Of a stretch of 64,000 nucleotides of DNA, positions 1 through 52,079 are shown piece after piece. Made by a program: the position numbers and the translations under genes. The stretch's first letter is position 1, and every line of letters starts with the position of its first letter. Source of the stretch: Escherichia phage dw-ec; sequence record OL739525.1; one strand, 5' to 3'. The notes under the pieces are model-generated. The model did no database searches. It was not told the origin of the DNA and saw only the letters and a program-made list of their open reading frames with translations.

Positions 1-17
1 CTTTAGCCATTTACTTC

Positions 18-167
18 CTATTCGTCGTCTCCTACTCCGTGATCCAACTCGTTAAACAACAGATGTTCTGGAGAAGTTTCACGTTTTGGTTTCGTTTTCT
101 TTATGTTGGACTTCAGCTCATTTGCCAAAGCACGAGAAAAGATCTTACGTTTCTGTTTACTTTTCAT
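18..167 (-). CDS. small basic hypothetical protein (about 49 aa, below ORF-track cutoff)
   Basis: ATG at 167 on minus strand, open to a TAG near 18; Lys/Arg-rich; same orientation as flanking operon; coordinates approximate. Confidence 0.25.
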   Translation of the reverse strand: MKSKQKRKIFSRALANELKSNIKKTKPKRETSPEHLLFNELDHGVGDDE

Positions 168-172
168 AATTG

Positions 173-433
173 TTACTCCGCAATTTGAGCCATGAGATCA
201 CGCAGTTCGGTAAAACCGCCTACGTATGTTACCTCCCCGTTCACTTCAGACAGAATTTGTGGAAATGTGCGTGGAGGAACTCCGGTAAGATCAACAACTG
301 TTTTAGTCATTGATTCTAAATCATAGTCTTGATCAAGACTTAAATATTCAAACTGTTTATTGCGCATGGTTAATAGTTGTTTTGACATTTCGCAAAATTG
401 ACAGTTAGGTTTACCAAAAATTACAAATTCCAT
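173..433 (-). CDS. glutaredoxin (NrdC/Grx-like thiol-disulfide redox protein)
   Basis: CQFC active-site motif near N-terminus, TFPQI...GG glutaredoxin signature, 86 aa; sits in the ribonucleotide reductase neighbourhood. Confidence 0.75.
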   Translation of the reverse strand: MEFVIFGKPNCQFCEMSKQLLTMRNKQFEYLSLDQDYDLESMTKTVVDLTGVPPRTFPQILSEVNGEVTYVGGFTELRDLMAQIAE

Positions 434-1275
434 TACCTCTCCTTATTAAGTAATACTGCTAAAGACTGTTCAATACCTTTATTTAAATCTGATTTTGTAA
501 GATAGTGACTGGTTACTAGTTGTGACTTCACCGGACGTGCTGCTGGAGCATTATAGGTTGAAGCTGATACCGCCGATATCTTAACAGGTTCTGGCATCTG
601 TGTCAAGATCTTTTCCGCAAACTCCGCCCAAGAAATAAAATGGCTTCCTGCAAAATGGTAAGTCTTAACAGACCTTGACCAACCTGTTTTTAATACTTCA
701 AAAATAGCTTCTGCTAAATCTGGAGCATATGTTGGGCAAGAGAACTGATCAGCAACAACAATAAAATCACGTTGTCCATCATTATAGCGAGACAACATGG
801 TTTTTAGAAAGTTATTTCCAAATTCGCTATATACCGAGGCTGTTCGAATAATATATGCATTTGGGTTAACTCCTCGCACCATTTTTTCACCAAGTTCTTT
901 CGTATACCCATAATTGTTTATTGGGTTAGGTGTAGTATCTTCAAAAATAGGATGAGAATAATTAAAAATATAATCTGTAGAAATATGCACAAAATCAATT
1001 TTAAGTTTGCTGCACACTGCCGCAATATTTGCAGGTCCATATGCATTAACAGCCAAAGCAGTAGCAAAATCATGTTCTGCTTTATCTACAGCCGTATAAG
1101 CAGCGCAGTTAATAACACCGTCTACATAATCTTCAACAATAGCGTTTCGCACAGCTTCAAAATTTGTAATATCTACACGTTCTTTAGGATAAATTAAAGA
1201 TACATTTGAAGGAACCACTTTACGTAAAGCTTGTCCCAGTTGTCCATTACCACCCAATACCAGATATATTAGCAT
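433..1275 (-). CDS. rmlD: dTDP-4-dehydrorhamnose reductase-like (RmlD family)
   Basis: N-terminal GGNGQLG Rossmann motif; NCAAYTAVDKAE, ISTDYIF, YGYTKELGE, GNNFLKTML, DQFSCPT match RmlD landmark blocks; 280 aa. Confidence 0.7.
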   Translation of the reverse strand: MLIYLVLGGNGQLGQALRKVVPSNVSLIYPKERVDITNFEAVRNAIVEDYVDGVINCAAYTAVDKAEHDFATALAVNAYGPANIAAVCSKLKIDFVHISTDYIFNYSHPIFEDTTPNPINNYGYTKELGEKMVRGVNPNAYIIRTASVYSEFGNNFLKTMLSRYNDGQRDFIVVADQFSCPTYAPDLAEAIFEVLKTGWSRSVKTYHFAGSHFISWAEFAEKILTQMPEPVKISAVSASTYNAPAARPVKSQLVTSHYLTKSDLNKGIEQSLAVLLNKER

Positions 1276-1835
1276 ACACCCTCACTACGCAACTGTTGAA
1301 AAGATTTAGCCATTGCATCTTTTGTTGATAAGATAGGTTTAAAATCTTCATCAAAAATCATATCAAAGCCCCAATCGATCCCTATATCAGGATCATCCCA
1401 ACGTAAACTTTGTTCGCTAGAAGGGTCGTATGGAGTTGTGCATTTGTATTCAAAGATAGCATCCATACTCAAAACTATAAAACCATGTGCCAAACCAGGT
1501 GGAAGCCAAAATTGCGTATGGTGTCGTGCACGAAGAACAACACCGTCCCAAGCACCGTAAGTTGGACTATCTTTACGTAAATCTACAGCGAAATCCAATA
1601 CTTCTCCACTTACACAACGAACAAGCTTACCTTGCGGGTTGTTTGTTTGGAAGTGCATTCCTCGCAAAACACCGAAGTTTGATTTAGACATGTTATCTTG
1701 AACGAAAGTTTGTCTACCAATAATATCTTCGTATTTTTGTTCATTGTATGTTTCTAAAAAGAAACCACGATCATCTTTATAAACGTCTGGTTTGATAATT
1801 ACCGCACCTTCAATTTTTGTTTTTTCTACTTTCAT
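1269..1835 (-). CDS. rmlC: dTDP-4-dehydrorhamnose 3,5-epimerase-like (RmlC cupin)
   Basis: DDRGFFLETY...QDNMSKSNFGVLRGMHFQ matches RmlC signature; 188 aa; 7-nt overlap with rmlD-like gene. Confidence 0.7.
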   Translation of the reverse strand: MKVEKTKIEGAVIIKPDVYKDDRGFFLETYNEQKYEDIIGRQTFVQDNMSKSNFGVLRGMHFQTNNPQGKLVRCVSGEVLDFAVDLRKDSPTYGAWDGVVLRARHHTQFWLPPGLAHGFIVLSMDAIFEYKCTTPYDPSSEQSLRWDDPDIGIDWGFDMIFDEDFKPILSTKDAMAKSFQQLRSEGVC

Positions 1836-1844
1836 TTTCTCTCC

Positions 1845-2171
1845 TTACCAGACATGTTGAGAAATAATAGTTTCCGTTTTAATGTTATATTTTTCAAGTA
1901 GCTCTGCATAGGCTTCTTTTGCATTCTCATTTAATTGCTCAAGATCTACAGCTACGCTTCCTTCTCCGCCTTCTAAATAAATACCATATATGCAATAAGA
2001 CTCATCAGCATCGTAGAAAGGAGAGATGCGACTTAAGTCCAGACCTTCTTGTAAGAACCAGTTAAAATCTCCGTCAAATTCTTCTTCAATTCTAGGATCT
2101 TCTCCTACAGCCTCTTCCCACTTATTAAAAGGTGCACCCTGTAACATACGCCATTCGATATCAATACCCAT
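1845..2171 (-). CDS. hypothetical protein (acidic, 108 aa)
   Basis: ORF track; GAGGAGGA RBS upstream of ATG. Confidence 0.5.
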   Translation of the reverse strand: MGIDIEWRMLQGAPFNKWEEAVGEDPRIEEEFDGDFNWFLQEGLDLSRISPFYDADESYCIYGIYLEGGEGSVAVDLEQLNENAKEAYAELLEKYNIKTETIISQHVW

Positions 2172-2322
2172 TTTTCATCTCCTCCTCTTGAGCAGCTTTA
2201 ATAATTGCTTCATAAATATCGTAAGCAATGCCTCCACAACATCTAGCTTCGAAAGCTATTGCTTCTGCAATGTGGTCTGTTAGTTCTCGTGGAATTCGGA
2301 CATACTCTTTTTCACTCTCCAT
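2161..2322 (-). CDS. small hypothetical protein (about 53 aa, not in ORF track)
   Basis: ATG preceded by GGAGG; fills gap between flanking minus-strand genes; overlaps neighbours by 11 nt each side. Confidence 0.3.
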   Translation of the reverse strand: MESEKEYVRIPRELTDHIAEAIAFEARCCGGIAYDIYEAIIKAAQEEEMKNGY

Positions 2323-2463
2323 CTTCTACCTCCGACCCTGCTTTTTCAAATACTACTACTCGTCCTTCACCATGACAATTCAGGCAAGGAAATGTTACCA
2401 TAATTTCCACTTCCATCTGTCCAGTCCCACCACACACAGGACAAAAAATAAGTTTTTCAGCCA
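2312..2463 (-). CDS. small zinc-ribbon protein (about 49 aa, two CxxCxGxG motifs, DnaJ-type zinc finger-like)
   Basis: Reads MAEKLIFCPVCGGTGQMEVEIMVTFPCLNCHGEG...; strong TAAGGAGGA RBS; not in ORF track (under 60 aa). Confidence 0.35.
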
Positions 2464-2673
2464 TTATTCCTCCTTAATTATTTCAAACTTGGCAACACCA
2501 TTTACAATAATATGACCACAAGACATAACTCCTAGCCAAGGATCGCCGTTTTTCTTCAGGCGTTTACCGAATACATCACAAAAACCATTCTTCATTTCGG
2601 AGGCTTCATAAGAAGCCCCTTTGTCAAAAACGTCTTTGAATGTGTCGATTATACCAACACATCTCAAAATCAT
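2464..2673 (-). CDS. hypothetical protein (69 aa)
   Basis: ORF track; start overlaps nrdB stop (coupled). Confidence 0.45.
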   Translation of the reverse strand: MILRCVGIIDTFKDVFDKGASYEASEMKNGFCDVFGKRLKKNGDPWLGVMSCGHIIVNGVAKFEIIKEE

Positions 2674-3758
2674 TAGAAGTCAAGCTCCTCATCATCAGAG
2701 AGATCTTTGTTAGCTGAATTCAATTTGTAATTAGTTAACTGAATCTCTTGGGCTGCTGACTGAATCAAATCAGGATTCAACCATTTTTCCATCCAAGCTA
2801 AAGGACTATGTTTAGGTGCTTTAAACTTGGCTTTCATTTTCAATCGACGATAAATAGGAGCAGCATTGAAATAAACCCACTGTTTAGACAATTCGGCGTT
2901 AAGACCTACAATAAAACGACCTTCACTAAACAGGTAGTCACACCACTGTTCCTCTTGTTCAACAACAGTGTCGAGGATCAAAGTCAACTCTTCAATATTG
3001 TCTTCGTAAATTTTACGCCAAATTGGGTCATGCATCAATGCATCAATTACAGCATAATCCATCTTAACATGCAAGATTTCATCTAGCATAATTTTCTGGA
3101 TCAGCTTACAAGCCCCAACAAACAATTGTTGTTCTGCCATAGCAAAAGTAGCAGAGAAGGAAGATATAAACTGAATACCTTCTAATCCAATCAGGGCTAC
3201 CATCCCTTTAAGAATCAGCAATCGAAGTTCATCGTTAGCTTCAATCAATCCTAGAGCATACTTATGACCAGCTTCTTCCAACTGACCCATGATATCAGCA
3301 ATGATACCCATACGATTGAAAATTTTATCATTAATCATAATCTGATTGATGACTTCAATTGGATCTGGAGTACATTGACGAATTATTTCAGAATACGTTA
3401 ACGCATGGAGAACTTCCATTTCACTCTGCTTCATCATCATAGCACAGGCTTCATTGTTACTCAAGAATGGAGAGAACAAAGTGATGATTGATTTTGCAAG
3501 AGAATCATTTTCCCATTGGAACGATAAGTTTTTAATCATAACATCATAGTTGTTTTTAGAACAAGCTACGAAATCTTTACGTGTCTGATCCAAGTTAACT
3601 TCGTTTTCATCCCAATCTTGTGCTTTTTGAAGTTTGTAGAGTTTGTGCATTTCTGGATAAGTTACGTTAACAGAATCAAAGATCCCTAATTGCTCCCCCA
3701 AAAATACTGGATATTTTCCTGTTTTGTAAACTTCGTTGTGTAAATTAATTGCTGCCAT
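2673..3758 (-). CDS. nrdB: ribonucleotide reductase class Ia small subunit
   Basis: 361 aa; recognised as NrdB by overall sequence character and size, adjacent to nrdA. Confidence 0.9.
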   Translation of the reverse strand: MAAINLHNEVYKTGKYPVFLGEQLGIFDSVNVTYPEMHKLYKLQKAQDWDENEVNLDQTRKDFVACSKNNYDVMIKNLSFQWENDSLAKSIITLFSPFLSNNEACAMMMKQSEMEVLHALTYSEIIRQCTPDPIEVINQIMINDKIFNRMGIIADIMGQLEEAGHKYALGLIEANDELRLLILKGMVALIGLEGIQFISSFSATFAMAEQQLFVGACKLIQKIMLDEILHVKMDYAVIDALMHDPIWRKIYEDNIEELTLILDTVVEQEEQWCDYLFSEGRFIVGLNAELSKQWVYFNAAPIYRRLKMKAKFKAPKHSPLAWMEKWLNPDLIQSAAQEIQLTNYKLNSANKDLSDDEELDF

Positions 3759-4083
3759 TTAAATCCTCCACTATTTCACAAAAACCTCTTAAGCTTAAAA
3801 TATCTTCTTCCTCAAAATCATTGCTCCGGTAGAAAGCTTCCAGTGCTTCCCATACGCTTCTACCAAGTATAACAGTCACTGTTTCTTCACTTCTTGCCCT
3901 TGTTATTGCGTAAGCCGTGGCTTCTGGATAAAAAGATTCCCAAATCTGCATGTTAGCTATTTCAAGACCGCCAAGATAATGGTGACACCAAGTAGGGGTA
4001 AAATCTTCAGGGCGAATCAACAGAGGCTTAAACCCAGGTCGGTAGATTGGGGTTACTCCAGGTAAAACTATAAGTGTGCTCAT
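3745..4083 (-). CDS. hypothetical protein between nrdA and nrdB (about 112 aa)
   Basis: Track ORF 3745..4152 trimmed to the ATG at 4083 that follows GAGGAGG RBS and lies downstream of the nrdA terminator hairpin. Confidence 0.5.
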   Translation of the reverse strand: MSTLIVLPGVTPIYRPGFKPLLIRPEDFTPTWCHHYLGGLEIANMQIWESFYPEATAYAITRARSEETVTVILGRSVWEALEAFYRSNDFEEEDILSLRGFCEIVEDLNGSN

Positions 4084-4093
4084 AATCCTCCTC

Positions 4094-4116
4094 AATAAAA
4101 AGGGGCTGAAGCCCCT
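4094..4116 (-). terminator. intrinsic terminator after nrdA (possible attenuator before nrdB)
   Basis: AGGGGC-TGAA-GCCCCT hairpin with T-run on the minus strand directly after the nrdA stop. Confidence 0.5.
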
Positions 4117-4123
4117 AGTTTCA

Positions 4124-6364
4124 TCACATCTTGCAAGCTTCACAACCACCATCAGAATCTTCTTGTGCTAAAGAGTCTGCTGATTTTGTTCTACTATTAA
4201 GGTAATACAACGACTTACCACCCAGTCTAGCAAAATTCAGAATAAACTGCATCTCAGCTTTCACTGATAAACGTCCACCTACCAATTTAGAATAATCTAG
4301 CCAAGAATCACAAGAAATTCCTTGGTCCGTAAACTTGGTAAAGATACCATACATTTCTGCAAGGTCTTTAGCCGGAGTGTCCCAGGCGGACTGGTAGAAC
4401 ATTTTCAGTTTTTCGTAGTCTGGAACAATAAATAATACACTACCTTTCTGACTTTGTTTATACATAATAGTATCACGAACAGGATACAGAGAGTTAGTAG
4501 TATTGCTTACCAAACTGCTGGACTCATTAGGTGCGATAGCAGCCAAGACACTGTTACGGATACCACCTTGTTCAATGATTTCAGCACGTAAGCCTTCCCA
4601 GTCCATTTTAAGATCAAAATTACCGATACTATCTACTGTTTTAGCATAAGTGTCAATTGGTAGCCAACCTTGAGGCCATTTGGTCTTATCAATCCATTCC
4701 GCATTACCTTTTTCCTTAGCCAGACGCAGAGAGGCTTTTGCCAACCAGAAGTAATGACGTTCTGCAAGTTCATGCATTAATTTTTTAGCGTAAGCATCTG
4801 AATAATTTACAAAATTACTTGCCAAGTAATGCGCTAAGTTTGTAATGCCTACACCAATAGATCTACGTGCTTTAGCAGTTATTTCGTTATGTTTAAATGG
4901 ATAATCCATTGTTTCAATAACGTTGTCAATTGTCAATACAGTGTAGTATGCAACATCCTCATATTCTTCAGGTAAGACACGACCAGCAACAATAGAAGAT
5001 AAGAAGCATAAAGCCAACTCTTGATCTTCTGTATTCTCACCAGTAAAGAGATCCGGCATACTGTGGAAAGCTTTAGTTGGTAAGAAGATCTCTTGACACA
5101 GGTTTGATTGATACACCGTATCCAGGAAAGGTGTATGGTTGTTAACGTTGTCAGCAAAGAACATGTAAATACGTCCTGTTTCTGCACGTTGAACAATAAT
5201 CTCTGTCAGAAGATCACGAGCCTTAACAAATTTTTTCTTAATGCGACGACGGCTTACTTTGTCATAAACTGCATCAAACTCTTCTTCACTTTTATACAAA
5301 GCTTCATAAAGTTCAGGAGCATCATCACAACTAACTAACATCCAATCTTCGTTTTTTGCTGCTCGACGCAAGAATGAACGGTTAACAACAATAGAATAAT
5401 CCAGTTTGTCTACTCGTTTATCTATAGGTGTTGTTGGATTCTTCAGTCGAATCAGATCGTCGAAGTCTGGTTCAAGTATGGTAAAGGTAACTGTAGCACT
5501 ACCTCCACGGCTTGCTTGCTTCGAAGCTCCAACACTATCTTCCATCCATTTCAGATACGGAAGAAGACCACCATGAATAATACGATTATTCTTAACACCT
5601 TGACCTGTGGCACGAGTTTGAAGATTAACACCAATACCTGCGTTATTCAACGTATACTCATGAGCTAAGTAATTAGCAATGGCTAAAGACTCTGCTGTGT
5701 CATCTGCACGGAATAAACAACAAGACGCACTTCCTTTGATTGGAGTTCGTAGAGTTGTCAGATATGGTGATGGCAGATTAATCTTAAGATCGCTAACATA
5801 AGTATACAGTTTTTTAATATCTTCTATACGGCGTTCTTTTGGTTGGATCTCCATAACCTTCATTGCGATACCAATGAAAAGAAACTGTGGAGACTCATGC
5901 ACCACATCGTTTACTGCATCTCGGATAAGATATTTATCCACCATCTGACGTAAAACAGAATAGCCATAAGTTAGATTTTTATTATGCTTTACAATCTTAC
6001 CAATTTCTTTGATCTCTTCATCAGTATAATCCATTTTAGCCCAATGTCCACGTTCTACCATATCATGATAAAAGGTATTCAGTGAAGGGATACTGTGGTA
6101 TCCCCCATGAGCCTGTTTGTAAATCATACCCAGAAGAAGTCTTCCTGCCATATCACTGTAAGCTTGTGTTTTCTTGTCAATACACGCTGCAATCATTGCT
6201 TTATGCAGATCACGTGTAGACACACCGTCATAACACCGCTTCACAGCTTCTAATTCAATTTCAGACCAGTTTAGTTTACCTGCTGCAAATTCAGACCACT
6301 TGCGAAGTTTTTCTGGATTAAACTCCTCTGTCTTACCGTTAGATTTAGTTACAAAACGAATCAA
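4124..6364 (-). CDS. nrdA: ribonucleotide reductase class Ia large subunit
   Basis: 746 aa; recognised as NrdA by overall sequence character and size, with C-terminal Cys residues. Confidence 0.92.
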   Translation of the reverse strand: MIRFVTKSNGKTEEFNPEKLRKWSEFAAGKLNWSEIELEAVKRCYDGVSTRDLHKAMIAACIDKKTQAYSDMAGRLLLGMIYKQAHGGYHSIPSLNTFYHDMVERGHWAKMDYTDEEIKEIGKIVKHNKNLTYGYSVLRQMVDKYLIRDAVNDVVHESPQFLFIGIAMKVMEIQPKERRIEDIKKLYTYVSDLKINLPSPYLTTLRTPIKGSASCCLFRADDTAESLAIANYLAHEYTLNNAGIGVNLQTRATGQGVKNNRIIHGGLLPYLKWMEDSVGASKQASRGGSATVTFTILEPDFDDLIRLKNPTTPIDKRVDKLDYSIVVNRSFLRRAAKNEDWMLVSCDDAPELYEALYKSEEEFDAVYDKVSRRRIKKKFVKARDLLTEIIVQRAETGRIYMFFADNVNNHTPFLDTVYQSNLCQEIFLPTKAFHSMPDLFTGENTEDQELALCFLSSIVAGRVLPEEYEDVAYYTVLTIDNVIETMDYPFKHNEITAKARRSIGVGITNLAHYLASNFVNYSDAYAKKLMHELAERHYFWLAKASLRLAKEKGNAEWIDKTKWPQGWLPIDTYAKTVDSIGNFDLKMDWEGLRAEIIEQGGIRNSVLAAIAPNESSSLVSNTTNSLYPVRDTIMYKQSQKGSVLFIVPDYEKLKMFYQSAWDTPAKDLAEMYGIFTKFTDQGISCDSWLDYSKLVGGRLSVKAEMQFILNFARLGGKSLYYLNSRTKSADSLAQEDSDGGCEACKM

Positions 6365-6380
6365 CTTCTCCTCCCTATTA

Positions 6381-6635
6381 TTAATGCATATTCAAAACAT
6401 CTACATCATAACCGAACTTCATTTCATTAAAAAGTCCATTAGCATATAGAAAACCTTCAAAATGAGTTATGTCATCAAACCCTTTTGCTTTTGCTCGACG
6501 GTCTGCTTCTTGTCTTTTAGGAGATAAACGTTTTGAAGTGTCTAGAATTACAGTTACATTACAACCAACAGTTTCATCAAAATAGACTTCGATTTCACAG
6601 CCTTCATATTTATTATCAGTCATTGTCCCTCTCAT
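6381..6635 (-). CDS. hypothetical protein (84 aa)
   Basis: ORF track. Confidence 0.45.
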   Translation of the reverse strand: MRGTMTDNKYEGCEIEVYFDETVGCNVTVILDTSKRLSPKRQEADRRAKAKGFDDITHFEGFLYANGLFNEMKFGYDVDVLNMH

Positions 6636-7052
6636 TGATTAGTATCATCTGCTTTCGCAGGATCATAAGAGTTACCGAAATCATCCATCTTAATATGTGA
6701 CGCACCCCAACCTGTAAATTCTTCATCACCAAAATGAAAAATATCATTTTCTTGATAGATTCGTTTAAAACCACAATTAGGTGAAACAGGGAAAGTGAAA
6801 AGCGTTGTATTTGCAAACACTACTCGCTTATCGTTATTGCTTCGGATATTCACATTACGCTCAACAGAATAGTGTGAATCTTCAGCCATACCCAGCATTA
6901 CAAGCGACGCTCTAATAACAGCATTTTGTTTCTCGTGTGGGATATTGCCATTGTGTTTATTTGATTCTAGTTTCCAGATAGGGGTAGACATTACAGTAGA
7001 CATGCTTACGGTAGCCCAAGTTGTAGTATTTACTAATGACATATTTTCTCCT
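6632..7052 (-). CDS. hypothetical protein (about 140 aa)
   Basis: Track ORF 6632..7075 trimmed to ATG at 7052 preceded by AAGGAG RBS. Confidence 0.5.
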
Positions 7053-7096
7053 TCGTTTTGAATGGGAGGACTCACCTCCTCCCAGTATTGTGCTAT

Positions 7097-7124
7097 ATTA
7101 TACTAAAACTAATACTAAAGTCAA
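7097..7124 (-). promoter_or_regulatory. sigma70-like promoter (TTGACT-16-TATAAT)
   Basis: Near-consensus -35 and -10 on minus strand upstream of a GGGAGG...CCTCCC hairpin and the 7052 start. Confidence 0.5.
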
Positions 7125-7140
7125 TAACTATTTAAACAGA

Positions 7141-8139
7141 TCACCATTTAGTATGATTTGTTAAAAGTTGACGATGTTGAATCCAGCCTTTGAAATTGCC
7201 AGACCAAAACTTACCATTACGATCTACATGGGTAATACCTGGTTCCCAAGAGTTAAAATCCCAAGGAGCATTGATAAACAAATCTTCAAAACAGTTCTCT
7301 CCATATTGTTCGTATGTTTCTTGCATTGGAGTGGCTTGATGTTCAAACGGAGAAGCATGAACCTTGCGCCCAGTCAGCAAACGACCATAGATATCTAAAG
7401 CTTTATCTTTAGTTGCATTTAAACGACGATAGCTAACCTGTGCACAACACGAAGCTGAAATAGCTTTGGCTTCTTCCAAAGTAAGCACAACAACTTCTCC
7501 AGATTCATCTTGAACATAGTATCCACCAAAAACAAAATGATCGTCACCTTCTGTGCCAATATTATCATAGAAATGGTTTACATAAGGTGTGTGCCATTGC
7601 CCTGGTTTCAGCACTTCTGGTGTAGATTCTTCATACTCTTTGTGCATCTCTTTAGCCAAAGCTTCGATAGTAGGATCGGCTTCTTTGTCATCACGTAGCC
7701 ACCAGAAATTTTCATATTCTGTTGCTGTCAGAACTGTTTTAATTCGTTGGAAAGGTTCCAGAAGACGGTTTGCAACTTGTTTGTGGTACCCTGCCAAAGA
7801 GAATTCTTCTGCAAAACGTGCTGCACTAAGCGCGGCAAGATCCCACCACTCTTGAGCAGTATAACCTGCATCAATAAGAGCATCATGGTCAACACCTTTG
7901 TCCTGCATACCAGGTTGGTTAGCCCCGAAACGATAAGGACGAGCAGGCTGATTTCGAACCATTTCGATCAGTGTTTTAACAGGTATAGCACGGCTAGAAG
8001 CAGCATTACGACTGAACAGGCGGTGAGTCATCAGTTCTGAATGAATAATACGTGGATATTCAAGTTCGAAAGTTACAATCTCTTTTCCGTCTTCAGTGAT
8101 GGAATGTGCAATAATACTAGCCGAAATCTGTTTTGTCAT
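7141..8139 (-). CDS. ThyX-like (flavin-dependent thymidylate synthase family) protein, divergent
   Basis: TFELEYPRIIHSELMTHRLFSRNAASSRAIP resembles the ThyX RHR...S...S.RY block; HASPFEH motif present but near the C-terminus; 332 aa, longer than typical ThyX. Confidence 0.55.
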   Translation of the reverse strand: MTKQISASIIAHSITEDGKEIVTFELEYPRIIHSELMTHRLFSRNAASSRAIPVKTLIEMVRNQPARPYRFGANQPGMQDKGVDHDALIDAGYTAQEWWDLAALSAARFAEEFSLAGYHKQVANRLLEPFQRIKTVLTATEYENFWWLRDDKEADPTIEALAKEMHKEYEESTPEVLKPGQWHTPYVNHFYDNIGTEGDDHFVFGGYYVQDESGEVVVLTLEEAKAISASCCAQVSYRRLNATKDKALDIYGRLLTGRKVHASPFEHQATPMQETYEQYGENCFEDLFINAPWDFNSWEPGITHVDRNGKFWSGNFKGWIQHRQLLTNHTKW

Positions 8140-8148
8140 TTTTTCTCC

Positions 8149-8757
8149 TTAGTTTTTAAAATTGTTCAAAGTGTTAAAAACATCCAAACATGTTAGCCAC
8201 TGATCTTCTAAACCTGTGATCACAACATTTGGTTTTTTCTTTAGTTCTTCTAGATGGTTATCTTTATAAGGCGTATTAAAATATATTTTAACCACTTCAT
8301 CTGGAAAATATAGTAGGTTATCAGCCCTGTCATCTATTGCTATATCACAAGGCAATAAGTATTTTTCTTTCGTAGCAAAAAAGCCGTTGCCAGATCCTTT
8401 GCTAAAATCAATCGTATCTAATGTTCTTAAAACATGCTTATGTTTAGAACTTAAGTGACCACCTTTTGTCACACTTGCGATCAAAAGATTGCTACCTTTC
8501 CTTGAAACATACTTTAAGAAATCTGGCATACCTGGAACAAAACCCATTGTATCATAGAGATGAGGATTATCCAGAAATCCGTAAGGATCTATATTGAACT
8601 CCTCCCTGAAACCAGGAAAGTAGTTGGTAAGATCGTAATCTGCATTTTTTGTGAATGTGTCGATTTTAACACCAAGGCCACTAATCTTATTCAACCATTC
8701 TAACCAAGCAACATCTAACGGAGCCACAACTAAATCCCAATCACATACTATCTGCAT
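8149..8757 (-). CDS. HAD-superfamily hydrolase (possible 5-prime nucleotidase)
   Basis: N-terminal IVCDWDLVV (DxD motif I); 202 aa. Confidence 0.45.
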   Translation of the reverse strand: MQIVCDWDLVVAPLDVAWLEWLNKISGLGVKIDTFTKNADYDLTNYFPGFREEFNIDPYGFLDNPHLYDTMGFVPGMPDFLKYVSRKGSNLLIASVTKGGHLSSKHKHVLRTLDTIDFSKGSGNGFFATKEKYLLPCDIAIDDRADNLLYFPDEVVKIYFNTPYKDNHLEELKKKPNVVITGLEDQWLTCLDVFNTLNNFKN

Positions 8758-8775
8758 AAAACCTCCTCTCTCTTT

Positions 8776-8803
8776 TAGTATAGTTATCTTATACTAACTT
8801 TCA
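8776..8803 (-). promoter_or_regulatory. sigma70-like promoter (TTGAAA-16-TATACT)
   Basis: Minus-strand hexamers upstream of the 8757 start. Confidence 0.4.
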
Positions 8804-9369
8804 ATTTCCTGCAATAGGATTTTGACTATTTGTTTACGGCGTTTCGCTACTGTGCTTTCAGGTTCTATTTTACGCTTCTTCAGCCATGCTTTATCTTTCT
8901 TAGCTCTGCACAAAGCTATCGCTTCTTTTTCAGCTTTCGCTTCTTCAAAAGATATGCCTTGCTTGTCTGCATAAGCAAGAATAGAGTTGCACAATTTACA
9001 AACCATTCGCAAATCTTCTTCTTTCACATAGATCAAACGGAAAACAAAAAGGGGAATATCCTCAAAACATTGAAGTTGTTTTGCTGCGTGAATATGATCC
9101 ACTTGGAAGTCTTTCATTCCTCCTCTGTGTCCACATATTTCGCACTCACAATTCCAAACTTGTTTTGGTTTTCCAGTTTTCTTGTCTATCATTACATTGC
9201 CGTCTTTATCTACACGATCAACTTTAAAACGCCTTGCATTGATAACCTTAATTTTATTAGGGTGTCTCATCCATGCTTTTCTAAAACATCCCCTAAGATA
9301 AGTATAAAATTCAGCTTGTGTTTTCCAGGGTGTTCCTTCACCCCACATTATTTTTGGTTCACCTGCCAA
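8794..9369 (-). CDS. HNH endonuclease (free-standing, homing-endonuclease-like)
   Basis: CECEICGH...FQVDHIHAAKQ...CKLCN HNH motif; 191 aa. Confidence 0.7.
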   Translation of the reverse strand: MAGEPKIMWGEGTPWKTQAEFYTYLRGCFRKAWMRHPNKIKVINARRFKVDRVDKDGNVMIDKKTGKPKQVWNCECEICGHRGGMKDFQVDHIHAAKQLQCFEDIPLFVFRLIYVKEEDLRMVCKLCNSILAYADKQGISFEEAKAEKEAIALCRAKKDKAWLKKRKIEPESTVAKRRKQIVKILLQEIES

Positions 9370-49794: not shown

Positions 49795-51693
49795 ATGTCA
49801 ACTACAATTACTAATTTACCCGAAACATCAAAAGTTAATGGTTCAGATTACCTGGTTTTAGATCAACCTGATAAAACTGTTAAAAGCACAGTTTCCAACT
49901 TTCTTACTGACACTGGGGTGGTTTTAGCCACCCAGTTGAAAGATACAAATGGAGCAGATTTAATACAATCCTCAAATGGTAATACTGTTCAGGAAGAGTT
50001 GAATAACAATCTTCTTAATGATCGTGAACAGTGGCGTCGTAGTCTTGCCGAGGCTGGGTTAACTCTTGTTGATGGTAGTTTTGAAGAAGGGGCTACAGTG
50101 GGCAGTGTAACTGATGCTGTTTGGCACATTTCTGTTGGACAGTGTTATACATGGCATGGCGCTTTCCCTAAAACTGTTCCTGCTGACTCAACCCCTGAAG
50201 CATCTGGTGGTGTTGGTATTGGTGCATGGGTTAGTGTTGGAGATGCATCTTTGAGAAGCAATCTTGCATCTGATGATGGCGCGGGTCTGGTCGGATTTAA
50301 GTCGCCTCTGGCCAACTCTATTAAGCGAGCACTACATGATAAAAATAATGACCTGGTGTCAGTCAAGGACTTTGGAGTTGTTGGCGACGGTGTGACCGAC
50401 GATACCGCCGCATTTCAGGCAGCAATAGATTCGAAAAAGAGTTTATACATACCGGATGGTATTTATCTTATAAGCTCTACTTTAATCATAACTGCCACTG
50501 ATAGTTTATGTATTGTTGGTAATAGTTTTGGACATGTTAATGACCAAACAACAGGTTCAGTAATTAAGTTTACTGGGTTAGCGTCACCCGCCATTCGGGT
50601 TCAAGGTGGTGCGATAGGAGCTAAGATTTCTGGACTTTTTCTGGATATCCAGGATTCATCATCTGATGGCTTTGATTTCGGTGGGGCTTGGTATTTAAAA
50701 CTTCAAGATTGCGTTGTCAGAAACGCTCGATATGGGGTCTATTTACATTACGATAGCCCAGACTATTTTTCCGGAGTAGCTGAGCTAACTTCGTGCTATT
50801 TCGCTAAATGCGCAAATGGCGTAAAAACGTCAAAAGTAGATATCAACGTAGTTAAAGTTGATAATTGCACCTTCTTTGACGGAGTTAACGGTGTTCTTAT
50901 TGGTGACTCAGGTGCTGCAAGTAGTGTGCGAAATTTCATAGTCAGAGACTCTCTATTCGAAGCGAACACAGGTTATGACGTAGGCGTCGTCGCTGGGGGT
51001 GCGCAGCAGTTACTGGTAGATGGTAACTATTTCGAAGAGAATACCGCTTCCTCTTTAGCGAGGGTATATGTTGCAGATGATGTTCGCTCTCCGCGTTCTT
51101 CCTCGGTTTCAATAACTAACAACACGTTTAGTAAAGATACGACAGGCGACCTTGTTTTCTTGTCCGGTGTTTCCGGCGTTCTTGTTAAACAAAACTGGTC
51201 TGCGTTCGGAGGTATAGGTTTTGTACGGGCGATTAATATTGACAATTATGAGATAGATAGATGCTCCACAGTATCAGGTGCGGCTCCATGTAATGTTGTC
51301 ATAGACAACATCTTACAAGTACCGGACACTTCTGTTAATAAGATTTCTATTAACAAGGCCCAAGAATACTCGTTTATTGGGACTACTGTCGTAAAAAGGT
51401 CTAGTGCATGTACACGGGCTATGATTCAATTTAATGGAATTTCTGGGTCGTTAGTGTATGCAGACGGAGCAACTGTATCTAAAACCGGGACCGGTAAATA
51501 TACCATCAACCTATCTAATGCTTTACCCTCTTCCGCATACGCTGTTTCGTGTAGTGTCGGCAATACTACAGGCGGAGAGAAATTAGCAATTAATGTTGTA
51601 AGTACATCCGCTGGTTCTTTTAACCTTGAAGTTTTCGACCTTTCAGGGGCGTATCAGGATTCTGGATACATATCTGCCGCAGTTATTATGTAA
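49795..51693 (+). CDS. tailspike with pectate-lyase-like beta-helix (polysaccharide depolymerase candidate)
   Basis: DFGVVGDGVTDDTAAFQAAID motif typical of pectate lyase superfamily N-terminus; 632 aa. Confidence 0.55.
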   Translation: MSTTITNLPETSKVNGSDYLVLDQPDKTVKSTVSNFLTDTGVVLATQLKDTNGADLIQSSNGNTVQEELNNNLLNDREQWRRSLAEAGLTLVDGSFEEGATVGSVTDAVWHISVGQCYTWHGAFPKTVPADSTPEASGGVGIGAWVSVGDASLRSNLASDDGAGLVGFKSPLANSIKRALHDKNNDLVSVKDFGVVGDGVTDDTAAFQAAIDSKKSLYIPDGIYLISSTLIITATDSLCIVGNSFGHVNDQTTGSVIKFTGLASPAIRVQGGAIGAKISGLFLDIQDSSSDGFDFGGAWYLKLQDCVVRNARYGVYLHYDSPDYFSGVAELTSCYFAKCANGVKTSKVDINVVKVDNCTFFDGVNGVLIGDSGAASSVRNFIVRDSLFEANTGYDVGVVAGGAQQLLVDGNYFEENTASSLARVYVADDVRSPRSSSVSITNNTFSKDTTGDLVFLSGVSGVLVKQNWSAFGGIGFVRAINIDNYEIDRCSTVSGAAPCNVVIDNILQVPDTSVNKISINKAQEYSFIGTTVVKRSSACTRAMIQFNGISGSLVYADGATVSKTGTGKYTINLSNALPSSAYAVSCSVGNTTGGEKLAINVVSTSAGSFNLEVFDLSGAYQDSGYISAAVIM

Positions 51694-51726
51694 ATAATGC
51701 TCACTCCAGATATCCATCATGTAAAA

Positions 51727-51750
51727 AACCCCTCTTCGGAGGGGTTTCCT
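51727..51750 (+). terminator. intrinsic terminator
   Basis: CCCCTC-TTCG-GAGGGG hairpin followed by TTT. Confidence 0.5.
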
Positions 51751-51770
51751 AGAAAAACAATGAGGTTTAT

Positions 51771-52079
51771 ATGAACGAAATGTTCTCACAAGGTGGTAAG
51801 GGTTCAACTGGAATCTTAACCAACAAACAAGCAGTAGCCCGTCACTTTGGGGTTAAGCAATCTGAGGTTGTTTACTTCTCAGTTGGTGTGGATTTGGGTG
51901 GGTATAAGGTTATCTATGATAAGGAGACGCAAAGGGCGTATTCCCTACCTGCTGATATTGCCCCAGGTACTACTGCCATTAGTCTTAGTGCTGCTGTACT
52001 TGTGCATTCAGCGGGTTCTGTAGACCTTGGGGAATTAGCTGTATCTCGTGATTTAAAAAGTAATGAGAATGCACTATGA
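51771..52079 (+). CDS. hypothetical protein (102 aa)
   Basis: ORF track. Confidence 0.4.
   Translation: MNEMFSQGGKGSTGILTNKQAVARHFGVKQSEVVYFSVGVDLGGYKVIYDKETQRAYSLPADIAPGTTAISLSAAVLVHSAGSVDLGELAVSRDLKSNENAL

Follow-up and report, generated by a model that had tools for sequence, protein, structure and literature searches.

Homologs of RmlC and RmlD encoded without RmlA and RmlB in Escherichia phage dw-ec: a predicted partial pathway to dTDP-L-rhamnose

The rmlC and rmlD genes

In Escherichia phage dw-ec (sequence record OL739525.1), homologs of rmlC and rmlD lie near the start of the 64,000-nucleotide stretch analyzed here, which is referred to throughout as the window. Their products are predicted to be the last two enzymes of the pathway to deoxythymidine diphosphate (dTDP)-L-rhamnose, and they are encoded without the genes for the first two enzymes, rmlA and rmlB (together rmlAB). 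The features at the locus are as follows.

173-433, minus strand: glutaredoxin gene grx (86 aa; PF00462, E=1.8e-9)
433-1275, minus strand: rmlD, dTDP-4-dehydrorhamnose reductase, a short-chain dehydrogenase/reductase (SDR) of 280 aa (TIGR01214, PF04321, PDB 3sc6, catalytic residues)
1269-1835, minus strand: rmlC, dTDP-4-dehydrorhamnose 3,5-epimerase, 188 aa (TIGR01221, PF00908, PDB 1dzr, catalytic residues)
1840-1844, minus strand: GGAGA, the Shine-Dalgarno sequence of rmlC and also the junction of the rmlB/rmlA deletion (comparison with phage phAPEC8)
1845-2171, minus strand: open reading frame (ORF) of 108 aa, phrog_15453, placed directly upstream of rmlC by the deletion; in phAPEC8 rmlB comes next

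The assignment of the two genes to these families, made in the initial annotation from the letters alone, is confirmed by profile searches, by close homologs of solved structure and by intact catalytic residues. RmlC matches PF00908 (E=1.1e-66) and scores 225.4 bits against TIGR01221 over residues 2-181 of 188 (cut-off 155.75), while RmlD matches PF04321 (E=1.7e-73) and scores 239.2 bits against TIGR01214, a narrow margin over the cut-off of 224.05. Both TIGR models are NCBIfam equivalog models with curated cut-offs, and the profiles matched are those of RmlC and RmlD rather than those of unrelated cupin or short-chain reductase families. Among solved structures, RmlC comes closest to the Salmonella enzyme (1dzr, E=4e-56) and RmlD to that of Bacillus anthracis (3sc6, E=2.7e-44). 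Residues H61, K70, Y130 and D173 of RmlC align to the catalytic residues of 1dzr (H63, K73, Y133 and D170 in Salmonella) and are kept in all 17 phage orthologs examined, and RmlD possesses the nucleotide-binding motif GGNGQLG (G8xxG11xxG14, residues 8-14) together with the SDR triad T100, Y122 and K126. True RmlC structures are matched at E ~1e-56, compared with 9e-30 for NovW, ~1e-26 for EvaD-type and 4e-26 for ChmJ-type mono-epimerases, values that are no more than suggestive of a double (3,5) epimerase rather than a mono-epimerase such as NovW, EvaD or ChmJ.

The close packing of the two genes with grx that had been described for this locus is real. The end of rmlC overlaps the start of rmlD by 7 nt (ATGCTAA), and the stop codon of rmlD overlaps the start codon of grx by 1 nt (TAATG). 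The order rmlD then grx is also found in phages phi92, Tr1, phiWec179 and phAPEC8. Glutaredoxin is probably a partner of ribonucleotide reductase (RNR) rather than a member of the sugar pathway.

Loss of rmlB and rmlA

A megablast search with positions 1-4000 of the window returned 126 phage records, the best of which belong to Phapecoctavirus, a genus of phAPEC8-like E. coli myoviruses in the Stephanstirmvirinae. The window aligns to positions 43792-108289 of phage ETEC-TG at 99.3-99.7% identity. The absence of rmlA and rmlB from the window, as initially annotated, extends to this relative, since tblastn searches with phAPEC8 RmlA and RmlB (E<=1e-3) gave no match either to the window or to ETEC-TG, whose genome was searched in full. 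RmlA, RmlB, RmlC and RmlD are all encoded in one genome in phAPEC8, phi92, Tr1 and phiWec179, and the window holds the last two of the set.

The cause of the absence is a deletion of ~1.9 kb. In phAPEC8, rmlB and rmlA lie immediately upstream of rmlC, and the order rmlB-rmlA-rmlC-rmlD-grx is found between nrdB and a lysozyme gene in phi92 (Justusliebigvirus), Citrobacter phage Tr1 and phiWec179. The order shared by these four phages indicates that the four-gene operon is ancestral to the subfamily and that the deletion in the window is derived. The start of phAPEC8 rmlB reads ...TGGTAAGGAGA followed by ACTGATG and that of phAPEC8 rmlC reads ...GCGGAGA followed by GAAAATG, whereas the start of rmlC in the window reads ...TGGTAAGGAGAGAAAATG. 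Alignment of these sequences shows that the lost segment ran from the GGAGA Shine-Dalgarno sequence of rmlB to that of rmlC, with the junction at this microhomology. After the deletion rmlC retains a ribosome-binding site at the correct spacing. The identical junction occurs in the window and in seven rmlAB-less genomes, namely ETEC-TG, ZCKP1, anhysbys, iGC_PHA_EC001, Mt1B1_P17, nepoznato and ECML-183-2. The junction sequence differs in MirsaeidiM_Esher1, which may represent a second deletion event.

RmlC is present at >=95% identity in 64 phage records and phAPEC8-type RmlA in 48, about five of which are phiWec phages whose RmlC is divergent (confirmed for phiWec179 and assumed for the other four). 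Roughly one third of Phapecoctavirus records lack rmlAB, and phage ESCO37 has been reported to lack rmlA and rmlB (PMC10269720). In phiWec179 the operon is mosaic (L010 4126-6400), with RmlA 97% identical to that of phAPEC8 and the adjoining RmlC 65% identical to that of the window, a discrepancy that suggests recombination with its breakpoint where rmlA meets rmlC. The RmlA match in phage AV125 is split in two pieces and may reflect a frameshift.

Several records in which the locus is near-identical to that of E. coli Phapecoctavirus, or matches as Justusliebigvirus does, carry other host labels (Campylobacter phages A145, B15 and others, Pseudomonas phage PsgM04F, Acinetobacter phage vB_AbaM_ABPW7 and Klebsiella phage ZCKP1); these labels are probably contaminants or misassignments. 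A scan of IMG/VR for further RmlC loci returned two matches, one a near-identical contig that possesses rmlAB and the other at 40% identity.

Conservation of rmlC and rmlD in the absence of rmlAB

Constraint on the two genes was assessed in a population of 14 GenBank loci. All ten rmlAB-less genomes examined encode full-length RmlC (188 aa) and RmlD (280 aa) with all catalytic motifs and neither frameshift nor stop codon, and one of these intact genomes stands at pS=0.16 (pS and pN being the synonymous and non-synonymous differences per site) from the window. Pairwise pN/pS against the window ranges from 0.02 to 0.19. The eight rmlAB-less genomes that share the junction contain 49 synonymous and 20 non-synonymous segregating sites (ratio 0.113, p=3e-18 versus neutrality), and the five rmlAB-positive genomes contain 65 and 11 (ratio 0.047, p=3e-32 versus neutrality). 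In the rmlAB-less set non-synonymous changes are about nine-fold rarer than the neutral expectation. The rmlAB-less genomes do not form a clade in rmlCD, and their haplotypes are mosaic with those of rmlAB-positive genomes. Pooled and within-cluster site counts are given because this non-monophyly rules out a clean test of selection after the deletion. The population recombines and is polymorphic for the deletion, and rmlC and rmlD are under purifying selection in rmlAB-less genomes, though part of the constraint may stem from rmlAB-positive backgrounds.

These data bear on the notion that rmlCD lost their role along with rmlAB and persist as a stranded remnant, owing either to a recent date of the deletion or to the restoration of intact copies by recombination. 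Slightly relaxed constraint in the absence of rmlAB (0.113 versus 0.047, Fisher p=0.04, a marginal difference), the mosaic haplotypes and a close rmlAB-less trio with 6 synonymous and 7 non-synonymous segregating sites agree with such a fate. It is nevertheless highly improbable given the intact genes in ten of ten genomes, including the one at pS=0.16, the retention of the catalytic residues, the survival of a correctly spaced ribosome-binding site for rmlC through the deletion, and the scarcity of non-synonymous changes.

A proposed pathway supplied by the host

It is probable that rmlC and rmlD, as the remnant of a full operon, encode working enzymes that act on a sugar nucleotide pool of the host and whose product feeds glycosyltransferases of the phage. 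In the proposed mechanism, an ancestral rmlB-rmlA-rmlC-rmlD operon would have been cut to rmlC-rmlD by the deletion between the GGAGA sites. During infection RmlC would epimerize host dTDP-4-keto-6-deoxy-D-glucose at C3 and C5, and RmlD would then reduce the product of RmlC with NAD(P)H to form dTDP-L-rhamnose. The substrate would be supplied by host RffH and RffG, which belong to the pathway for enterobacterial common antigen (ECA), or by host RmlA and RmlB where these are present. The dTDP-L-rhamnose would be used by four orphan glycosyltransferases of the phage that are encoded beside the primase/helicase gene beyond the window, for which candidate acceptors are a virion protein, DNA, a host glycan and a small molecule.

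The distribution of the host genes is consistent with such a supply. Of 5426 complete E. coli genomes, 5309 (98%) contain rffG and rffH, the paralogs of rmlB and rmlA in the ECA pathway, while DNA resembling K-12 rfbC is present in at least 2348, a lower bound set by the sensitivity of blastn. Near-universal rffGH and patchy rfbC would make rmlAB dispensable to the phage and rmlCD worth keeping. These phages are reported to have ECA as their common primary receptor (PMC8594841), and because synthesis of ECA needs dTDP-4-keto-6-deoxy-D-glucose, we infer that any cell to which they can adsorb makes the substrate of RmlC, while enzymes equivalent to RmlC and RmlD would be missing from many hosts. 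The initial annotation had suggested that the phage may draw on a host pool of this sugar nucleotide, and such use remains the best reading, reached by inference from the frequency of rffG-rffH and the identity of the receptor.

The initial annotation had also raised a different use of the same substrate, in which the phage perturbs the envelope of the host. RmlC and RmlD could drain dTDP-4-keto-6-deoxyglucose from ECA or O-antigen synthesis, or dTDP-rhamnose could inhibit RmlA or RffH, with altered surface glycans or sparing of dTTP for the synthesis of phage DNA as the outcome. Feedback inhibition of RmlA by dTDP-L-rhamnose is a feature of the bacterial pathway that would fit this scheme, as would the placement of rmlCD among genes for dNTP supply. 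The substrate of RmlC is also the branch-point precursor of the reported primary receptor (PMC8594841). Against this, the operon in its ancestral form, which is still the commonest, includes rmlA and rmlB, whose products use up dTTP and enlarge the pool of dTDP-4-keto-6-deoxyglucose; surface glycan that already exists would not turn over within a lytic cycle; and four conserved glycosyltransferases would be left unexplained. Interference with the host envelope is distinctly unlikely.

Several points weigh against a working, host-supplied pathway that ends in the phage glycosyltransferases. The activity and product of RmlC and RmlD are predictions, and since RmlD scores barely above its equivalog cut-off (239 versus 224 bits) a different stereochemistry at C4, as in 6-deoxy-L-talose, is possible. 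The glycosyltransferase genes lie outside the window, and their presence in dw-ec is judged from ETEC-TG, to which the window is 99.3-99.7% identical. Co-occurrence of the rml and glycosyltransferase genes amounts essentially to one phylogenetic event and one extra case (the contig L025, described below). Constraint on rmlCD is slightly weaker where rmlAB is missing, and since the rmlAB-less genomes are not monophyletic, alleles imported by recombination could carry part of that constraint.

Glycosyltransferases and candidate acceptors

The search of the remaining genome for glycosyltransferases that had been proposed for this locus was rewarded in ETEC-TG (OR786310), where four consecutive intact glycosyltransferase genes (GT1 to GT4) occupy positions 117160-120304 on the minus strand (L005:17160-20304), between the primase/helicase and endolysin genes and ~9 kb past the right end of the window. 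GT1 and GT2 are paralogs (41% identical) with weak GT-B-type Pfam matches, GT3 (227 aa) and GT4 (187 aa) possess DxD-type motifs (DDD in GT3), and all four have strong matches to PHROG glycosyltransferase families. Among 5.8 billion proteins 17 relatives of GT3 were found, none of them named. Sequence searches of the PDB with GT1, GT4 and a GT3 profile returned nothing meaningful. An AlphaFold model of GT3 (mean predicted local distance difference test score 88.9) has a GT-A fold whose neighbors in a Foldseek search of the PDB are generic (STIV A197, TarP, RmlT and others, with TM scores of 0.4-0.5), and an attempt to name the acceptor of GT3 from its structure was dropped because the fold matches are to GT-A in general. 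Rhamnosylation of elongation factor P by an EarP-type enzyme was likewise set aside, as neither GT1 nor GT2 matches the Pfam model of that family at E<0.01.

The four glycosyltransferases are likely users of dTDP-rhamnose, to judge from the company that their genes keep. The matches of GT3 at >=60% identity come from 126 phage records and those of RmlC from 129, about the same set. Each protein matches ~105 Escherichia phage records, which equals the count of the Stephanstirmvirinae megablast set and leaves no room for many Vequintavirus records, so that Vequintavirus phages appear to lack both RmlC and GT3. A distant relative, the 135-kb Logan contig SRR24146891_1208 (L025), encodes a GT3 homolog of 43% identity and, inside the glycosyltransferase cluster at 2667-3737, an SDR resembling nucleoside diphosphate (NDP)-hexose 4,6-dehydratases (TIGR01181, E=3e-50, below the model cut-off), beside primase/helicase and PolA genes. 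Judged by this similarity, L025 is a second, independent tie of the cluster to 6-deoxyhexose chemistry. The synteny of the cluster is kept in three further metagenomic relatives.

Two other elements accompany the cluster. A protein of 85-92 aa with an SDWDY-x-GG motif and no family match is always encoded between the glycosyltransferases and the primase/helicase (L005:16882-17160, L025:5355-5612, L026:12644-12913). A Ter-type gene set (TerC, TelA, a TerF-like protein with a von Willebrand factor A domain, TerD, a SprT-like protein, a ComF-like phosphoribosyltransferase and a phosphatase/hydrolase) adjoins the cluster in ETEC-TG (L005:21628-32311) and is kept in distant relatives (L026:1201-8331, L027:453-8061, L028:1997-3654). 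The product proposed for Ter-type gene sets is a nucleoside-like metabolite, which could be a further candidate acceptor.

One candidate acceptor is the virion, on which the four glycosyltransferases might build a rhamnose-containing glycan attached to capsid, tail or fiber proteins, by analogy with cluster-F mycobacteriophages and with giant viruses that have their own 6-deoxyhexose pathways. Four such enzymes suggest an oligosaccharide over a single sugar. An alignment over residues 26-155 (25-28% identity, E ~1e-8) links GT3 to glycosyltransferases in 327 Mycobacterium phage records, cluster-F phages among them. In Che8 the part that aligns to GT3 is the N-terminal domain of gp108 (residues 41-179; 23% identity, E=0.002 in a small database), and glycosylation of Che8 virions has been attributed to glycosyltransferases that the phage itself encodes (PMC11256854, PMC12363180). 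The homology of GT3 to the Che8 protein is, however, remote and confined to the generic GT-A core, and the Che8 protein reported as essential (PMC12363180) is gp110 rather than gp108, with GT3 having no match to gp110. No Ser/Thr-rich C-terminal extension was found on the head, neck, sheath or tube proteins, which is not decisive, and no report of glycosylated Stephanstirmvirinae virions was found. Phage JEP7, for which a virion glycoprotein is likewise not described (PMC12894461), was left out of account because it could not be placed taxonomically. A glycan on the virion is an unlikely role for the cluster.

DNA is another candidate acceptor. The initial annotation had raised hypermodification or glycosylation of DNA, an idea already proposed by Olsen et al. 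(PMC7552041) and repeated elsewhere (PMC10844046). By analogy with the glucosylated hydroxymethylcytosine (HMC) of T4, the phage glycosyltransferases would move rhamnose from dTDP-rhamnose onto modified bases and so evade host nucleases. The rml genes have nrdAB, grx and a ThyX-like gene as companions in a block for nucleotide metabolism, and the glycosyltransferase cluster always adjoins primase/helicase and PolA genes. Two weak similarities of GT3 lie below threshold, one to PF20691, a family of TET-associated glycosyltransferases (E=1e-3), and the other to phrog_842, which represents beta-glucosyl-HMC alpha-glucosyltransferase (E=7.6e-6). Both are limited to ~40 residues at the nucleotide-binding/DxD region common to GT-A enzymes, with PF20691 scoring 19.5 bits over 37 residues (cut-off 27.5) and phrog_842 aligning over 39, so that GT3 falls outside both families, and the fold search returned generic GT-A proteins and no DNA glycosyltransferase. 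Neither a hydroxymethylase nor a TET/JBP domain was found among ~28 scanned proteins, many small hypothetical proteins lying outside the scan. By annotation, rV5 and PVP-SE1 have the ThyX-like and NT5C-like genes too, while Vequintavirus appears to lack RmlC and GT3. The suggestion is weakened further by phi92-like relatives that have the full pathway and the same glycosyltransferases and yet are reported to be 'exceptionally susceptible' to restriction-modification, a sensitivity that Maffei et al. described as occurring 'despite a putative dTDP glycosylation machinery' (PMC8594841). Modification of phage DNA is an improbable function of these genes.

A broader proposal, to be held tentatively and somewhat more doubted than believed, is that rmlCD and the four glycosyltransferases constitute a rhamnosylation system for a phage component (virion protein or DNA) or a small glycoconjugate, and that the rmlAB-less allele runs wholly on the host pool of the ECA precursor. 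If so, no rhamnose-based glycosylation system would have been described in a coliphage before, the full and partial pathways would be natural variants of it, and the rmlAB-less allele would draw on the same glycan pathway that builds the receptor of the phage.

The group to which dw-ec belongs includes broad-host-range E. coli phages that are widely used in collections for phage therapy and biocontrol, and ~6 kb of their DNA is spent on sugar chemistry (the rml genes and the four glycosyltransferase genes). Were the product to decorate virions, immune recognition and stability of therapeutic phages could change; were it to modify DNA, a new kind of hypermodification would be at hand. The polymorphism between full and partial pathways, combined with host genetics (rffGH, rfbBDAC), makes the role of these genes directly testable.

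Neighboring genes and variable segments

The minus strand of positions 1-9000 of the window holds densely packed genes in one direction, which besides the rml locus include four small ORFs and the following genes.

2673-3758, minus strand: nrdB
4124-6364, minus strand: nrdA
7141-8139, minus strand: ThyX-like gene (332 aa; weak match to Pfam Thy1, E=1.7e-8, residues 22-175)

The signature of the ThyX-like protein reads THRLFSRNAASSR, in which Thr replaces the first Arg of RHR, and the protein is long at 332 aa. The packing and common direction of these genes agree with the initial description of rmlC and rmlD as belonging to the same operon as nrdAB and the ThyX-like gene. The single operon is less secure, as the ThyX-like gene is closely followed by the best sigma-70-like site in the region (7124-7097, minus strand, TTGACT-16-TATAAT, 11/12) and nrdA by a terminator-like GC-rich hairpin with a T-run (4116-4101, minus strand); the block may comprise several transcription units.

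Two segments of the window vary between relatives. Positions 3770-4151 are the sole part of positions 1-24653 that does not align to ETEC-TG. A 135-aa ORF (3745-4152) occupies this place in the window and in phAPEC8, whereas in ETEC-TG, iGC_PHA_EC001 and phi92 a gene for an HNH endonuclease separates nrdA from nrdB, a difference that looks like a presence/absence polymorphism of a homing endonuclease. Positions 49955-52076, in the tail/baseplate module, have no megablast-level alignment to ETEC-TG 94206-96365 and are probably a variable receptor-binding or tail-fiber segment.

Comparison with known systems

The locus is ordinary as a sequence finding: public records annotate its genes correctly, for ~130 related phage genomes, and the main hypothesis has been published. 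GenBank relatives already name both genes dTDP-4-dehydrorhamnose 3,5-epimerase and reductase, and RmlC of the window is 100% identical to the annotated RmlC of ETEC-TG, anhysbys and others. The rml genes annotated in Phapecoctavirus and Justusliebigvirus (phAPEC8 gp100-103, phi92 gp064-067, ESCO37, ZCKP1 and ETEC-TG) are the same genes at the same locus; RmlC of the window is 98-100% identical to that of Phapecoctavirus records and 62% identical to that of phi92, and RmlD is 54% identical to that of phi92. Nothing essential differs between the window and these relatives, the window being the rmlAB-less allele. The rml genes and the rmlAB-less variant have been discussed previously (PMC7552041, PMC8594841, PMC10269720, PMC10844046), and the idea of DNA glycosylation and the counter-argument from restriction sensitivity are likewise published. 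The present analysis adds the deletion mechanism at a repeated ribosome-binding site, the constraint on rmlCD without rmlAB, the host gene frequencies with the logic of ECA as receptor, and the association with the glycosyltransferase cluster, including L025. The deletion mechanism, the selection analysis and the argument from host complementation were not found in those four papers.

The bacterial RmlA-B-C-D pathway (E. coli rfbBDAC; Salmonella RmlC 1dzr and RmlD 1kbz) contains the same two enzyme families with the same catalytic residues and predicted chemistry. The phage order is B-A-C-D rather than B-D-A-C, the window encodes only the last two steps, and the phage genes have RNR and glutaredoxin genes as neighbors instead of an O-antigen cluster. 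Identities of the phage proteins to those of E. coli K-12 are 50% for RfbC, 31% for RfbD, 63-65% for RfbA/RffH and 50% for RfbB/RffG, and the low values for RfbC and RfbD indicate that the phage rml genes are not a recent capture from E. coli. RmlD resembles the Firmicute enzymes 3sc6 and 1vl0 more closely than it does Salmonella 1kbz.

Among viruses, DNA glucosylation in the T-even phages, in which alpha- and beta-glucosyltransferases act on hydroxymethylcytosine, likewise combines glycosyltransferases encoded among replication and nucleotide genes with a nucleotide sugar derived from the host. The phages considered here differ in that the scanned proteins include no hydroxymethylase, the similarity of GT3 to DNA glycosyltransferases is sub-threshold and relatives are reported to be sensitive to restriction. 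Che8 gp108-110 resemble the present system as glycosyltransferases carried by a virus, GT3 being remotely homologous, over the generic GT-A core, to the N-terminal domain of gp108; no gene for sugar-nucleotide synthesis flanks gp108-110. Mimivirus and chloroviruses encode 6-deoxyhexose pathways, and the likeness to them lies in a virus that carries both sugar-nucleotide enzymes and several glycosyltransferases.

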